Sequence record: NZ_CP048628.1
Length of the DNA stretch: 46,189 bases
Direction: 5' to 3' (one strand)
Source of the DNA: a plasmid
This document shows, one piece after another, positions 8,690 through 37,338 of this stretch (its first letter is position 1; each line of letters opens with the position of its first letter). The notes beneath the pieces were generated by a model that was given only the letters and a program-made list of their open reading frames with translations, had not been told where the DNA came from and made no database searches. The translations under genes were made by a program, and so were the position numbers.

Positions 8690-8748
8690 ATTTTAAATGA
8701 TATACATTAGTTACTATATTTTGCTTAAAATATGTTATAATTGAAGTA

Positions 8749-8808
8749 CAAACACAACAGTTAAATAAAAGCAAAAAACCTTGAGATATGGTCTTACTTA
8801 AGGTTTTT
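8749..8808 (+). ncRNA. candidate small RNA (copy A), from extended -10 promoter TGtTATAAT at 8733..8741 to the hairpin terminator ccttgag..cttaagg plus T6
   Basis: About 55 bp homologous to 35088..35172; the hairpin stem differs by a compensatory change (t:a here, c:g in copy B), which argues for a conserved RNA structure. Confidence 0.45.
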
Positions 8809-32472: not shown

Positions 32473-32634
32473 ATGACTAATAATAATCTTAAAAAAAATG
32501 TTATTTCTGCAATAAAAAGTTGTGAGTTAGAAGGCTTTGTTTATACAAAAGAGGAAAAACAAGTTTTTAATAGAATTGCTTCAGGAGAAATAACAGTAGA
32601 TGAAGCAAGAAAGATTTTTAAAAGGATGTCATAA
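32473..32634 (+). CDS. VbhA/FicA-like small antitoxin candidate (53 aa) carrying the inhibitory motif SxxxEG
   Basis: MTNNNLKKNVISAIKSCELEGFVYTKEEKQVFNRIASGEITVDEARKIFKRMS; its stop overlaps the Fic start (taATGg); not in the ORF track because it is under 60 aa. Confidence 0.55.
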   Translation: MTNNNLKKNVISAIKSCELEGFVYTKEEKQVFNRIASGEITVDEARKIFKRMS

Positions 32635-33272
32635 TGGATGAGTATGTATTAAAGAATAAATTAGGTTTAAAAGATACACAAACCTTAAATAAATATGAAC
32701 GACGATTAAGTGCATTAAGAATTATTTCTCTTAAAGAAAAATCTTTTAAGAAATTTGATTTTTCAACCTTAAAAAGAATGCACAAGGAAATTTTTCAAGA
32801 CATTTATCAATGGGCTGGAACAACAAGAAATGTTAATATTTCCAAGGGAAAAACACTTTTTTGTCCAGTTGAAAATATAAATGTTTATGCTGATACAATT
32901 TTTAAAAAGTTAGAAAAAGAAAATTATTTAAAAGGGCTTTCTCAAGATAAGTTTTGCAAAAAAGCAGCTGAATTATTTGGAGATATAAATGCTTTACATC
33001 CTTTTAGAGAAGGTAATGGTCGTACTCAAAGAGAGTTTATTTATCATTTAGCTAAAAATTCTGGTTATGAATTGGACTTAAATCAATTAGATAAAACTAA
33101 ATATATGACGGCCTCTATTGAATCAATACTGACAAGTAATGAGAAAATGGAAAAGTTGATGAAATCTATAATAAAGCCGTTAGCTAAAGAAAAAGTCAAA
33201 ATCCGAAAACAGAAGATAGTGATGAAGTTTCCGGACAAGGATAAAAGTAATAATCGCAATATGGAACGCTGA
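32634..33272 (+). CDS. Fic-domain protein (AMPylation-type toxin) with C-terminal tail ..KQKIVMKFPDKDKSNNRNMER
   Basis: Canonical Fic motif HPFREGNGRTQREF (HPFx[DE]GNGRxxR). Confidence 0.8.
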   Translation: MDEYVLKNKLGLKDTQTLNKYERRLSALRIISLKEKSFKKFDFSTLKRMHKEIFQDIYQWAGTTRNVNISKGKTLFCPVENINVYADTIFKKLEKENYLKGLSQDKFCKKAAELFGDINALHPFREGNGRTQREFIYHLAKNSGYELDLNQLDKTKYMTASIESILTSNEKMEKLMKSIIKPLAKEKVKIRKQKIVMKFPDKDKSNNRNMER

Positions 33273-33347
33273 ATATATACAATATATAGTATATTTTCTT
33301 TCGACCATAAGATATAAAAACTATATTTAGTATATGGAGAATACAAA

Positions 33348-33539
33348 ATGATTAGTAATGTAGAACAAAAGCGGAGACGTGAAATGGTTGAATATAGTAT
33401 AGCTACCTGTGAATTAGAAGGATGTATTATAAGTGATGAATACAGAAGATTATCAGAAAAATATATTAAAGGTGAAATGACACTAGAAGATTTAAGTAAG
33501 GAAGTTCGGAAAAATCTTCCCTCAAATAAAAGCAGGTGA
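33348..33539 (+). CDS. second VbhA/FicA-like small protein (TCELEG motif)
   Basis: MISNVEQKRRREMVEYSIATCELEGCIISDEYRRLSEKYIKGEMTLEDL.. contains [ST]xxxE[GN]. Confidence 0.45.
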   Translation: MISNVEQKRRREMVEYSIATCELEGCIISDEYRRLSEKYIKGEMTLEDLSKEVRKNLPSNKSR

Positions 33540-33543
33540 TATA

Positions 33544-33954
33544 TTGAAATACTTATCTGGTATATTTGCATTGAATTTAATGTGTGATTTAGATACATTC
33601 GGCGACTGGCATACATCAGCGATTGATTGGAAGAATAAGATAAATTTTTGGAATAGTAGTCATAGTATATGGGGAGATTACGGCATAGAAAAAAACAGGA
33701 CTATTCCGGAAAACAAAGGAAAATTTAATGTTGCTAATCATATTAGAGCACTACTTGACTTAATCAGCATAGGAGATTTTCCTACAGCACAAGGAATGCG
33801 AGATAATTTTATCTGCAATGATAAATATACGCCAGAAATTTTTTCTAAAGTCAGTATGTTGAAGAACAATAAAAACTGGCCGGAAATAGATAAATTTATG
33901 GGTAAAGAATATATGATGCAATGGGTGAAATATAAAAAAGAGGTTAGTTTATGA
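33544..33954 (+). CDS. hypothetical protein upstream of the HipA-like kinase; HipS-like role possible
   Basis: 136 aa; overlaps the kinase gene start (ATGA). Confidence 0.35.
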   Translation: MKYLSGIFALNLMCDLDTFGDWHTSAIDWKNKINFWNSSHSIWGDYGIEKNRTIPENKGKFNVANHIRALLDLISIGDFPTAQGMRDNFICNDKYTPEIFSKVSMLKNNKNWPEIDKFMGKEYMMQWVKYKKEVSL

Positions 33955-34928
33955 TAATAGATTTTACTGATATAGCAAAAAATAATCCTAGTTTCAGAGC
34001 TTACGGAGGAGCTAACGGCATAAAAAAAGGAATACTATTTCATGGAAAACCGTATATGCTGAAGATAGAACATCGTGGAAAGAAGAAAAATAAAGATTAT
34101 AAGCATAGCGTATTATCAGAATATATTTCTTCAAAAATATATTCCATGTTGGATATTCCCACTCAAGAAGTTGTTCTCGGCAAGATTTATGATAATGGAA
34201 AAGAAAAATTATGCGTAGCTTGTAAAGATTTCAAAGAAAAAGGCGAATATCTGTATGAATTTTTAAATATAAAAAACTCCGTCCTTACGGAAAATTCCTC
34301 CAACGGCTCAGGTACGGAACTAGCGGAAATTTTAGAAGCCATAGATAAGCAGAACTTTTGTCCTGCAAGTGAAGTAAAAGAAAGATTTTGGGAAATGTTT
34401 GTCGTCGATACTTACTTAGGAAACTTTGACAGACATAACGGGAATTGGGGCTTTTTAGTTAATGAAAATACAGGGATTAAACACCTGGCGCCTGTTTTTG
34501 ATTGCGGGTCTTGCTTATATCCTGCACCTACGGATGAACAGCTACAAGTATTTTTAAACGACCCCAAAGAAATGGAAAAAAGAGTATATGTTTTTCCAAA
34601 CTCAATAATAGAAGAAAACGGTAAAAAAATAAATTACCATGAGTTCTTACAATCCACTTTAAATGAAGATTGTTTGAAAGCCGTAAGAAAAATGATACTC
34701 AAAATAGAAGCAAAATCTAATGATATAAAAGACTTTATTAATCACATTGAAGTATTATCTCCGGTTAGAAAGAAATTTTATACACAGATTTTAAGAATGC
34801 GTAGAGAACGGATATTGCAACCGGCATTAGAGCGTGCAAATAAATTGATGAAGAAGTCGTATAAGCAAAAAATAGTGATGAAGTTTCCGGACAAAGATAA
34901 AAGTAATAATCGCGTTATGAACAGATAA
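33951..34928 (+). CDS. HipA/HipT-like Ser/Thr kinase toxin with C-terminal tail ..KQKIVMKFPDKDKSNNRVMNR
   Basis: Catalytic region ERFWEMFVVDTYLGNFDRHNGNWGFLVNENTGIKHLAPVFDCGS parallels the HipA pattern ..vFN.lignTDDHlKNfS...g.w.LsPaYD.. Confidence 0.6.
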   Translation: MIIDFTDIAKNNPSFRAYGGANGIKKGILFHGKPYMLKIEHRGKKKNKDYKHSVLSEYISSKIYSMLDIPTQEVVLGKIYDNGKEKLCVACKDFKEKGEYLYEFLNIKNSVLTENSSNGSGTELAEILEAIDKQNFCPASEVKERFWEMFVVDTYLGNFDRHNGNWGFLVNENTGIKHLAPVFDCGSCLYPAPTDEQLQVFLNDPKEMEKRVYVFPNSIIEENGKKINYHEFLQSTLNEDCLKAVRKMILKIEAKSNDIKDFINHIEVLSPVRKKFYTQILRMRRERILQPALERANKLMKKSYKQKIVMKFPDKDKSNNRVMNR

Positions 34929-35104
34929 AAATTTAGATTGAAGATTTTCTATTAAGAAAATCAACCTTTTCTTCCGCGTTTTTATAATGTTGCTCTTATG
35001 ATTACTCCTGCTCTTTGATAAAGAAAAAGGTTATTTAATAGATACTTGCAAATTTGCACAAGATAAATATAGATGTTATATAAAAACTATGTTATAATTA
35101 AAGT

Positions 35105-35172
35105 ACAAACACAGATGTTAAACAAAAAGTAAAAAAACCTCGAGAAGCGGTCAACTTCACTCGAGGTTTTTT
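35105..35172 (+). ncRNA. candidate antitoxin small RNA (copy B) with extended -10 promoter TGtTATAAT (35088..35098) and bidirectional terminator (35138..35172)
   Basis: Nucleotides 35113..35129 (agatgttaaacaaaaag) are identical to 35303..35319, which makes the RNA perfectly complementary over 17 nt to the translation-initiation region of the convergent toxin ORF. Confidence 0.5.
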
Positions 35173-35207
35173 GCATTTTAGAGCTTGCCAGCTATGGGCT
35201 AGTTGCT

Positions 35208-35315
35208 TTAATTTTTAGTCTTATTACTATCTAACCACTTGCAAAAATAATGTACGGCTAAACCTGATACAAAACCTGCCATAATAGAAATAAGAAAATC
35301 ATAGATGTTAAACAA
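35208..35315 (-). CDS. candidate type I toxin: 35-aa hydrophobic peptide (Fst/Ldr-like)
   Basis: Strong SD gggaggaggtg, then a TTG start 8 nt downstream (in-frame ATG at codon 12). Peptide LFNIYDFLISIMAGFVSGLAVHYFCKWLDSNKTKN, hydrophobic core with a charged C-terminus. Promoter TTAACA-16-TATAAT with a TG extension on the minus strand at about 35357..35384. Convergent with the small RNA and shares its terminator. Confidence 0.45.
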   Translation of the reverse strand: MFNIYDFLISIMAGFVSGLAVHYFCKWLDSNKTKN

Positions 35316-35406
35316 AAAGAGCACCTCCTCCCGTTGCCGAGATTTGGTAAAGCAACATGATGATTATAGCATAAAAAAAGATGATGTTAAAATGTGTTTA
35401 CACGTT

Positions 35407-35420
35407 GTTTCACGTGAAAC
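35407..35420. promoter_or_regulatory. palindrome GTTTCACGTGAAAC (copy 3), about 22 bp upstream of the -35 of the toxin promoter
   Basis: Read directly from the sequence. Confidence 0.5.
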
Positions 35421-35688
35421 AAAAATCATATTTTTATGTAAAAAAAGATATTAATGTCATTTTCAGATAAAAATGTAAGGTAAAAGAGCAGGCTTTATTC
35501 CTGCTCTTTCTTTCTCATTGAAGATTTTCTTTCAAGAAAATCAACCTTTTCTCCCGCGTTTTTTCAAAATCGGCGTTTTCTCGTTCATTTTAAGCCGTTT
35601 TTATGATGTAGTCTTTAGAATTATACCTAAAATAAAAATAAATGGCTAAAAACAAAAAGCTACATGAATTAATCATGTAGCTTTTTTG

Positions 35689-37338
35689 TTAGCTGGCTTT
35701 ATTTAACAGACTAAAATTATCTATGATTACATCTGATGTATTGATTTTAAGCCCTATTTCTTTTGCAAACGTTATTATAAGATTATTTATAAAACTATTT
35801 TTGTTAGCTGGTATATTATTATAAAGTTTAGCCTGTATAATACAATTATTTTGTATTTCTATTAATGCTTTTACTCCTTCATCATCAGCTATTGCTATTA
35901 ATTGCAGTTTGTCATTTATAAGGTTTTTATATCCTGCACTACAATTATTTAATAAATAGGCAATTTCTTTTAAATTGCTATATTTCTTTACACAAGAAAA
36001 GTGATATCTCTGAATGTTTACATCATATTTATTAATAATATCTGTAGCTATATCAAAGTTAAAGTCTTTTTCTGATTGTTTAACTATTTCTAAAGCCAAC
36101 CAATTATGCAGTTTACTAAAAGCAATATTTTCTTGTTCTAATTTATTTAAAGTAGTCAAATTTGCTTCTTTATATAAATTTAATATATCTTTTATATAAT
36201 TGTATTTATTAAAAATAACATTAACCTTTACATTTTTATAGTATTTTAAATATAAATTATTAATAAAATCTATATATACATATAATTTATTTATTCTTCT
36301 CTCTAAATTACTGCGATAACTTTCTTTGTATTCTTTATTTATAAAGCATTTTTCATTTTTTAAATAAAACTTTAATAAGTTATTACTTAAATTCTTATTT
36401 AGATTGTTATATATTGTATTTATTATAGACAAATTTTTTAAAGAAAAATGTTGTTTTAAAAATTTTATGTTTGGTAATTTTAGTAAATCAAAAATTGTAG
36501 ATATATAGTCTTTTTTTAATCTATCAGTGTATTTTTTTTCAAAGTCGTTTAAATATTTATCAACAATATAGGTTTTCACATCATGAAAATCCTCGTTATA
36601 GGCAATATTCGGGCTATTGAAAAAACGCACCCTATGAGCTAAATTCAATACATTTCCTAAGAATTTTTCATGTATAGATAAGTTATTTACATATACATTA
36701 TTTAATTTAATATTATGAACTTGATAAACTTTTTTTATTATGGCTATTCTTAATTTTTTTAATAAAACTGTTAAACTATCAAAGTAATAATTTTTAGTAT
36801 TTATCTTAAAAAAATAAAGTGCAGTATTTTCTGTTAGGTTTTCCAAGTCTGTTATATAACCTATATCTTGCTTATCATGTTGAACATTATTTATATACTT
36901 TTTAAAAGTTATATTTTGGTTCTTTATATCAAAAGTATATATTTCTCTTATATTGGAGAAATGCAAAACACTATATATACTCTGTGCATATGAAATTGAA
37001 ATACTATTGTAATATATTCTAAGCTCTATTTTTTCTTTTAATTCATATAGTTTTATTTTTGTTATATAAGGTAACTCAACATTATACTCTTTACTTATTA
37101 TTACTTCATCTTTTTTGTGGCTATAACCTCGACCACATTTAGAACAATAAATCTTTTGTGTAAATGGATTTACTTTACTAAATGTAAATTCGTTCCCACA
37201 CTCACTACAAAAAGCAGTATGTTTTGATACAAATAAAGAGGCTTGACTTGTTTGACAATATAAATAAGCGTGTGGTCGAGATAATTCTGTTTGGGCTAAA
37301 AGTTTCATGGTAAAAGTCCTTTCTATAAATAAACGCAA
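35689..37338 (-). CDS. large hypothetical protein with N-terminal double zinc ribbon (CSECG..CSKCG), Asn/Lys/Tyr-rich; last gene of the leading-region operon
   Basis: 549 aa; no recognisable catalytic motif; the start may be the internal Met MKLLAQ. Confidence 0.4.
   Translation of the reverse strand: MRLFIERTFTMKLLAQTELSRPHAYLYCQTSQASLFVSKHTAFCSECGNEFTFSKVNPFTQKIYCSKCGRGYSHKKDEVIISKEYNVELPYITKIKLYELKEKIELRIYYNSISISYAQSIYSVLHFSNIREIYTFDIKNQNITFKKYINNVQHDKQDIGYITDLENLTENTALYFFKINTKNYYFDSLTVLLKKLRIAIIKKVYQVHNIKLNNVYVNNLSIHEKFLGNVLNLAHRVRFFNSPNIAYNEDFHDVKTYIVDKYLNDFEKKYTDRLKKDYISTIFDLLKLPNIKFLKQHFSLKNLSIINTIYNNLNKNLSNNLLKFYLKNEKCFINKEYKESYRSNLERRINKLYVYIDFINNLYLKYYKNVKVNVIFNKYNYIKDILNLYKEANLTTLNKLEQENIAFSKLHNWLALEIVKQSEKDFNFDIATDIINKYDVNIQRYHFSCVKKYSNLKEIAYLLNNCSAGYKNLINDKLQLIAIADDEGVKALIEIQNNCIIQAKLYNNIPANKNSFINNLIITFAKEIGLKINTSDVIIDNFSLLNKAS

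Follow-up and report, generated by a model that had tools for sequence, protein, structure and literature searches.

The par locus of the Enterococcus faecalis plasmid pAD1, which specifies the toxin Fst and the antisense RNA II, is, among described systems of the type I toxin–antitoxin (TA) kind, the one that the locus reported here resembles most closely. In par, convergent promoters drive a toxin mRNA (RNA I) of ~230 nt and an antisense RNA of 40–65 nt, the two transcripts share a bidirectional terminator, a direct repeat lies over the translation start region, and a 5′ upstream helix stabilises RNA I. The toxin is a peptide of ~33–35 amino acids (aa) that combines a hydrophobic helix with a charged tail, and the locus resides on a conjugative plasmid. 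These defining features of the par family are taken from the review by Weaver (PMC7472228).

Here we analyse a locus on NZ_CP048628.1, a conjugative plasmid of 46,189 bp from Megamonas funiformis (Negativicutes, order Selenomonadales); the window is this whole stretch of 46,189 nucleotides. A preliminary description had ascribed to the locus the layout and logic of pAD1 par, and the comparison bears this out: an Fst-type peptide of 35 aa, convergent promoters, a shared bidirectional terminator, a repeat over the start codon, a 5′ upstream helix and a conjugative plasmid are all found, with predicted RNAs of ~226 and 68 nt. Judged from its sequence, the locus is very probably a par/Fst-type type I TA module. 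Its sequence anatomy, the family of its peptide, the predicted folding and pairing of its RNAs, and the co-variation of both intermolecular and intramolecular pairings are established directly.

The toxin gene and its start codon

The toxin gene was originally reported as a minus-strand open reading frame (ORF) of 35 codons that begins with TTG, 8 nt behind a strong Shine–Dalgarno (SD) sequence, and is driven by an extended −10 promoter. Each of these elements is present (Table 1), and the promoter, which is kept in three close relatives (L001–L003), also has a recognisable −35 box. Most homologues listed or aligned show the leader pattern ...GCAAC-(A/G)G-purines-GG(A/G)GGUG.

Two other start codons were considered and rejected. 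A GTG in frame with the ORF overlaps the SD at 35324; the homologue L003 has lost 1 nt between SD and TTG, which shifts this GTG out of frame, while the TTG stays in frame in all relatives compared. The TTG is thus the conserved start, and it is the start used in the NCBI annotation of a peptide with 94% identity (P0001; MFNICDF...), which is named an Fst family toxin. The deposited record of the plasmid holds only a 24-aa hypothetical protein (GXM21_12760; P0003) at 35208–35282 on the minus strand. Its internal ATG has no SD and would remove half of the hydrophobic helix; the SD-backed TTG, 33 nt further upstream, is absent from the deposited annotation, as is the assignment to the Fst family. 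The toxin gene is therefore mis-annotated in the public record as a truncated hypothetical protein. Genes this small are seldom called by gene finders.

Table 1. Features of the module and of its surroundings, in positions of the window
Feature	Position	Strand	Details
Toxin promoter (RNA I-like)	35363..35390	−	−35 TTAACA, 16-nt spacer, TG-extended −10 TATAAT; 11/12 matches
Predicted toxin mRNA, ~226 nt	35131..35356	−	ends predicted from promoter and terminator; transcription start at G 35356, 7 nt past the −10, to the T-run
Upstream helix, 5′ strand	35356–35348	−	GUUGCUUUA; extreme 5′ end of the toxin mRNA
Shine–Dalgarno sequence	35332–35324	−	GGGAGGAGG; 8 nt before the TTG start
Toxin coding sequence	35208..35315	−	TTG start (35315–35313), 35 codons plus stop; encodes MFNIYDFLISIMAGFVSGLAVHYFCKWLDSNKTKN (35 aa)
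Upstream helix, 3′ strand	35210–35202	−	UAAAGCAAC; includes the stop codon UAA
Direct repeat, copy 1	35303..35319		target site spanning the translation initiation region of the toxin
Direct repeat, copy 2	35113..35129		within the single-stranded 5′ arm of the antisense RNA; when transcribed, complementary to copy 1 on the toxin mRNA
Bidirectional intrinsic terminator	35131..35172	both	A7-CCTCGAG...CTCGAGG-T6; the two RNAs overlap here and are fully complementary
Predicted antitoxin RNA (RNA II-like), ~68 nt	35105..35172	+	predicted ends; unstructured 5′ arm, then terminator hairpin
Antitoxin promoter	35090–35098	+	extended −10 TGtTATAAT, poor −35; read from the sequence
Fic/DOC-domain gene	32634–33272		adjoins the module
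136-aa ORF	33544–33954		unassigned; between the Fic/DOC-domain gene and the HipA_C-like gene
HipA_C-like kinase gene	33951–34928		overlaps the 136-aa ORF
549-aa ORF	35689–37338	−	between the module and the ssb/ardA genes; very AT-rich

The peptide and its family

With the NCBIfam model NF033608 (type_I_tox_Fst) the peptide scores 29.2 bits (E = 6e-7), above the curated cutoff of 26. The peptide had been described as transmembrane-like with a charged C-terminus; it carries the signature that Fozo et al. give for the Ldr/Fst superfamily, a tryptophan past the transmembrane helix followed by charged residues (PMC2887945), since in FLISIMAGFVSGLAVHYFCKWLDSNKTKN the residues D, K and K follow W27 behind the predicted transmembrane helix. 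The motif CKWLD is invariant in an alignment of 10 sequences and occurs in 83/83 homologous peptides, a set that was selected by a search pattern containing CKWLD. Across families the peptide is conserved at the amino-acid level, with synonymous variation. Together, these features support its assignment as a putative single-helix membrane toxin of the Fst/Ldr superfamily.

A PXXXG(C) motif in the hydrophobic domain is shared by Fst-pAD1, Fst-EF0409 and PepA1 (PMC7472228). Nearly all listed peptides of the CKWLD clade have A/G-x-x-x-x at this position. We take PxxxG(C) to mark the enterococcal and staphylococcal branch and not the superfamily, because the curated model still accepts a GxxxG peptide; by its sequence, the M. 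funiformis peptide belongs to a divergent CKWLD/GxxxG clade. Membership of the Clostridioides difficile type I toxin family NF047374 was rejected (15.3 bits against a cutoff of 60).

A HMMER scan of 1.8 billion representatives returned only 12 relatives of the peptide, several of them read-through artefacts. A homologous-protein search that yielded P0001 used the peptide lengthened with in-frame upstream codons as query. Two of the related toxin genes (P0006, P0013) occur as tandem duplicates.

The predicted antisense RNA and its pairing with the toxin start

On the plus strand, the preliminary description placed an RNA gene of roughly 68 nt with the promoter TGtTATAAT, and both the box and the predicted transcript can be read at the corresponding positions. 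A promoter scan had missed this promoter because the scan requires a −35 box. The −10 box is kept in L001–L003, and homology to L001 ends exactly there. The 68-nt RNA folds better than expected by chance (z = −3.8; 0/200 shuffles gave as good a fold) and matches no curated Rfam family. The terminator was rightly described as shared: its stem (35138–35144 with 35160–35166) is flanked by T6 (35167–35172) on one side and A7 (35131–35137) on the other, the latter serving as the T-run of the minus-strand transcript, and it folds on both strands with energies of −17.7 and −18.4 kcal/mol. As in pAD1 par, the bidirectional terminator gives the two RNAs complementary loops.

The 17-nt direct repeat that had been pointed out has its only exact copies in the window at the two sites given in Table 1. 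Allowing up to three mismatches, the window contains 7 matches where ~1 is expected, and none of 100 shuffles yielded as many. The small RNA had been said to be complementary to the toxin mRNA over the start codon and codons 2–5. The pairing indeed covers the start codon and codons 2–4, while of codon 5 only the first base is included; it also reaches 4 nt upstream of the start. In a duplex prediction, the small RNA pairs through its 5′ arm with the start region of the toxin mRNA at −21.8 kcal/mol, compared with −8.7 ± 2.4 kcal/mol for shuffled arms, and 0/1000 of these reach the observed value. With the strand opposite the small RNA's own gene set aside, the toxin start region is the best duplex site on the plasmid. 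A second site for the 5′ arm lies at 8720–8779 on the minus strand (−20.8 vs −21.8 kcal/mol) and probably reflects a chance match of A/U-rich sequence.

The repeat occurs a third time, in decayed form, at 35060–35086, just upstream of the antitoxin −10 box. Over 27 nt this third copy agrees with the start-region copy at 81% of positions; it reads like degenerate first toxin codons, and is present in the flank of L003 and absent in L001.

Folding of the toxin mRNA

The minimum free energy (MFE) fold of the predicted toxin mRNA pairs its extreme 5′ end (35356–35348) with the stop-codon region (35210–35202), the arrangement of the par upstream helix. The leader between the predicted transcription start and the start codon measures ~41 nt, and 36–43 nt in the homologues shown. 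Each named helix was tested individually in an alignment of 57 homologous mRNAs. The upstream helix is 92% paired, and 5/7 of its pairs show changes on both sides, with pair variants such as UA 29/CG 20 and GC 22/AU 10/UA 7/CG 4; compensatory cases are seen in L004 (GUUGCUCU/AGAGUAAC) and L013 (GUUGUCAUCA/UGAUGACAAC). A second helix within the coding sequence is 93% paired, compared with 36–52% for slid controls, and like the upstream helix it carries many double changes. A stem-loop that sequesters the SD (family-wide ACCC/GGGU) is 78% paired, with little co-variation. Neither this stem-loop nor the terminator was recovered by RNAalifold, because the 3′ untranslated regions align poorly. The predicted terminator loop contains UUGA, a candidate for a U-turn (YUNR), which is not kept in L004; the U-turn motif is likewise not present in all par homologues (PMC7472228).

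In most homologues, a small conserved hairpin, UCU-GGCAAC-AGA, precedes the SD, and its closing pair (20–27) co-varies (UA 33, CG 12). The GGCAAC loop (35336–35340) is complementary to the mRNA's own 5′ end, GUUGC (35352–35356), and GCAAC is also the 3′ strand of the upstream helix. The loop pairing and the upstream helix may be alternative, mutually exclusive pairings. One could speculate that the loop is a metastable co-transcriptional partner of the 5′ end that is later displaced by the upstream helix.

Repeat alleles among close relatives

The window, L001, L002 and L003 share a block of ~315 bp that extends from the toxin −35 box to the antitoxin −10 box and lies in differing gene neighbourhoods; L001 and L002 are contigs binned as C. 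difficile, and L003 comes from a metagenome. Against L001, the block starts at ~35399, just upstream of the toxin promoter. The boundaries of the module are supported by the fact that homology with L001 and L002 stops at the toxin −35 and the antitoxin −10 though the flanking genes differ. Within the block, the variable columns are concentrated in the two repeat copies, which change together.

A metagenome scan with an invariant 26-nt segment of the leader added 44 loci (L086–L129). Among the 46 loci in which both copies are readable, three repeat alleles occur (...TTTAACATCTGTG, ...TTCAATATCAATG and ...TTTAACTTTTGTG), which differ by 3–4 substitutions, and the copies match in 45/46. The exception, L114, is a mismatched hybrid and could be a recombinant or a dead module. 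The complementarity, whose absence from homologous loci had been named as a possible refutation, is thus kept by co-ordinated changes in close relatives, and in distant ones it is rebuilt from unrelated sequence. Copies that agree despite sequence change are what a requirement for antisense pairing predicts.

The 26-nt leader segment is common to all allele loci, and the promoter, the terminator and most of the toxin are also shared in the four aligned loci. It is conceivable, if doubtful, that such alleles behind one leader reflect selection for orthogonal antitoxin specificities. Were this so, co-resident or chromosomal copies would be unable to neutralise the toxin of an incoming plasmid, and the type I TA modules of gut Clostridia and Negativicutes would have undergone an incompatibility-like diversification.

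Distant relatives

For distant relatives, 185,579 species genomes were scanned for [HYN]Y[IF]CKWLD, and the first 600 pattern matches were used; the counts in this section refer to these matches. At least 143 relative loci were confirmed among them, in Lachnospiraceae, Oscillospiraceae, Peptoniphilaceae, Veillonella, Anaerovibrio, Phascolarctobacterium and other taxa. From these matches 80 homologues were retrieved. Homologous peptides were compared in a set of 83, and 75 loci with an SD-supported start, from Clostridia and Negativicutes, were analysed. The peptides are ~31 aa long and preceded by strong SDs, and 45/83 start with GTG or TTG.

The repeat was tested across the family by local alignment around the SD-supported start codons; exact common substrings miss interrupted repeats. 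In 72/75 loci, the start region and the 3′ flank share a direct repeat that scores better than each of 50 shuffles, as against 0 in the reverse-complement control and 3 in the upstream control. The repeat overlaps the start codon in 68 loci, and the downstream copy begins 30–110 nt past the stop codon in 75/75. An opposite-strand −10 box (at least 5/6 matches, within 45 nt) is present in 68/75, and across the 75 homologues the stop codon and the downstream copy are separated by a hairpin (median energy −27 kcal/mol). The repeat sequences themselves are unrelated between distant loci. In L004, for instance, whose peptide is 59% identical, CTATATGTTAGATTTA lies over the ATG and again past the terminator; next comes TGcTATACT on the opposite strand. 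The repeat of L005 consists of two parts, GGTTGCAG and ATGATTTATACGTTTTTA, with a spacing that differs between the copies and a TTGACA-17-TATAAT promoter on the other strand. Since repeats, −10 boxes and hairpins recur in this way, the par architecture appears as a property of the clade, in which the repeat is free to vary as long as its copies agree.

L004 also contains a second terminator-like hairpin at 2787–2818, ~100 nt beyond the first and much like that of the module, which may be a remnant of a tandem module.

Proposed mechanism and alternative explanations

In the mechanism that we propose, the strong promoter would yield an mRNA of ~226 nt for a 35-aa single-helix membrane peptide, and the extreme 5′ end of this mRNA would pair with the stop-codon region to form the upstream helix. 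A convergent RNA of ~68 nt from the extended −10 promoter would overlap the toxin mRNA across the shared terminator, and the 17-nt repeat would allow it to pair with the toxin start and first codons, blocking ribosome binding. The antisense RNA thus probably keeps the toxin silent. By analogy with pAD1 par, it would be the less stable partner, so that plasmid-free cells would translate the toxin and stop growing, and the plasmid would be stabilised. Here we infer the transcript ends, the toxicity of the peptide, the relative stabilities of the two RNAs and the role in plasmid maintenance.

Several observations weigh against a par/Fst-type module. The peptide lacks PxxxG(C) and has G-FVS-G (GxxxG) at the equivalent position, and a Pfam search of the peptide returned no Fst family even at E ≤ 10; its sole match, a TNFR transmembrane family, was dismissed as chance. 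Short, divergent peptides often fall below the sensitivity of Pfam. The SD-sequestering stem-loop is weak in the window: of the family pairing, only ~4 bp (UACC/GGUG) can form, and in the MFE fold the SD has another partner, the U-rich start region. The antitoxin promoter is without a recognisable −35 box, whereas the toxin promoter is near consensus. If antitoxin transcription is weak, silencing would have to rely on mRNA structure too; with a near-consensus box set against an extended −10 only, the balance of the two RNAs is not predictable from sequence. The host is a diderm Firmicute, and to our knowledge no Fst system has yet been tested in diderm Firmicutes. A final point concerns Rfam. 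RF02442 (SpF66), filed as a Streptococcus small RNA (sRNA), aligns over its full length (1–239) to 35351–35128 on the minus strand with 37.1 bits (E = 4.4e-7), which is below the gathering score of 42; the locus is related to the curated family but lies outside it.

This best Rfam match also raises a reading in which the ORF is untranslated and the minus-strand transcript is a non-coding sRNA, as the SpF66 label implies. The SpF66 consensus, however, translates to MSLILELVLTIIADVIAGIILYFVCKWLDGKE, an Fst-like peptide that ends in CKWLDGKE; what Rfam files as the sRNA SpF66 would therefore seem to be the mRNA of an Fst-like toxin, not a non-coding RNA. Conservation at the amino-acid level with synonymous variation, the invariant CKWLD, a strong SD at ideal spacing and the recognition of the peptide by NCBIfam also speak against an untranslated ORF, and we give this reading hardly any credence. 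Only slightly more probable, and still very unlikely, is that the downstream repeat was merely left behind when the toxin 5′ end was duplicated in tandem, with no antisense RNA and with mRNA structure alone in control. Tandem duplicates of these genes are known (P0006, P0013), a third, decayed copy lies beside the module, and gene conversion could in principle homogenise short repeats. A relic would be expected to decay, yet the copy is kept in place in 72/75 divergent loci and faces an opposite −10 box in 68; in 45/46 close relatives it co-varies with the start region, and the only promoterless copy (35060–35086) is the decayed one.

The alternative that deserves more attention accepts the peptide and its antisense regulation and differs in the role, which would be stress or metabolic regulation or the exclusion of phages or plasmids and not plasmid addiction. 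A non-addiction role is possible because many homologues are chromosomal: most of the 80, among the matches used, lie on long chromosomal contigs, and loci off mobile elements must do something besides plasmid stabilisation (PMC7472228). The module also sits among other toxin-like genes (HipA_C-like, Fic). Against this stands the position of the window copy and its closest relatives on a plasmid or beside conjugation and insertion sequence (IS) genes, the setting in which par stabilised plasmids. We regard such a role as unlikely at this locus, though a good deal less so than either of the other two, and favour a par/Fst-type module that serves plasmid maintenance.

Plasmid and genomic context

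Genes on the plasmid specify a MobA/MobL relaxase and a VirB-type type IV secretion system (VirB8, TrbI/VirB10, VirD4, VirB11, VirB4, VirB6), and there are further genes for a topoisomerase, ArdA, SSB, ParA, a HipA_C-like kinase, Fic and an IS605-type OrfB. Its GC content is ~22–37% in 2-kb windows. BLAST against the PLSDB plasmids found no match to the locus (distant mode) or to 25 kb of the plasmid (near mode), and BLAST against a phage collection found none to the locus.

A cluster of toxin-like genes at 32634–34928 adjoins the module and looks like a second toxin-like cluster; the L003 copy of the module is also adjoined by a Fic gene. On the other side, the 549-aa ORF has no Pfam match and shows Cys-rich, zinc-ribbon-like motifs near its N-terminus. 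Between it and the module lie two extra terminator-like hairpins (35483–35509 and 35654–35686) and a 10/12 promoter match on the minus strand (35648–35620).

A 47-nt direct repeat with 94% identical copies (34937–34983 and 35517–35563) flanks the module at ~100 nt on either side. Each copy holds a hairpin, GATTTTCT-nnnn-AGAAAATC, and could be a reused terminator or an insertion footprint; a short transcript from the promoter match at 35648–35620 could cross the second copy. The segment 34977–35016 shares rearranged similarity with 35495–35509 and 35596–35628. The 47-nt repeat was not found in any of 85 related loci, and no link to the module was established.

Novelty and comparison with known systems

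Fst-like toxins have already been reported in Clostridiales (PMC2887945) and in commensal Clostridia species (PMC7472228), and the NCBI pipeline already names close relatives as Fst. In a limited literature search, nothing came up on Fst systems of Negativicutes, which does not prove that none has been reported. The main value of the locus is one of annotation, with a public record truncated to 24 aa and an antitoxin RNA outside curated Rfam. Beyond this, the par architecture is retained in full by a large CKWLD-type clade that spans gut Clostridia and diderm Negativicutes and offers a clean natural co-variation data set for RNA–RNA pairing, and the module is a candidate stability cassette for Megamonas and Veillonella genetic tools.

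Streptococcal chromosomes carry the Fst-like loci Fst-Sm/srSm of S. mutans (PMC3543317), Fst-A/B of S. pneumoniae (PMC2887945) and SpF66 of S. pyogenes. The SpF66 consensus, ...FVCKWLDGKE, has the same C-terminal motif as the M. funiformis peptide, and in S. pneumoniae an antisense RNA of 65–75 nt opposite the 3′ end was detected (PMC2887945). These loci differ from ours in being chromosomal and in having unrelated repeat sequences, and our locus lies below the SpF66 gathering threshold.

The peptide PepA1 of SprA1/SprA1AS from Staphylococcus aureus is an Fst-family peptide grouped with Fst (PMC7472228). Aligned by eye, PepA1 matches our peptide without gaps from the small-residue motif to W-L and the charged tail, whereas it has PxxxGC where ours has GxxxG. 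Repression by SprA1AS is exerted in trans by its 5′ domain, the part that does not overlap, and the setting is a pathogenicity island. Ldr/Rdl of Escherichia coli shares the superfamily signature of a tryptophan past the helix followed by charged residues, and its antisense RNA lies opposite the 5′ end of the toxin gene, whereas ours is convergent at the 3′ end (PMC2887945). The C. difficile type I TA systems (NF047374; PMC5961336) are likewise systems of gut Firmicutes in which antisense RNAs serve as antitoxins to small membrane toxins.

Compared with pAD1 par itself, our locus has a single, continuous 17-nt repeat in place of two (DRa and DRb), which the two-part repeat of L005 resembles. 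It has GxxxG for PxxxG, a CKWLD motif with tryptophan, a TTG start, a weak SD-sequestering 5′ stem-loop and a diderm Negativicute host. The understanding of how Fst/par systems work is unchanged by these differences, and the locus is an ordinary cassette of the well-known Fst/par type.

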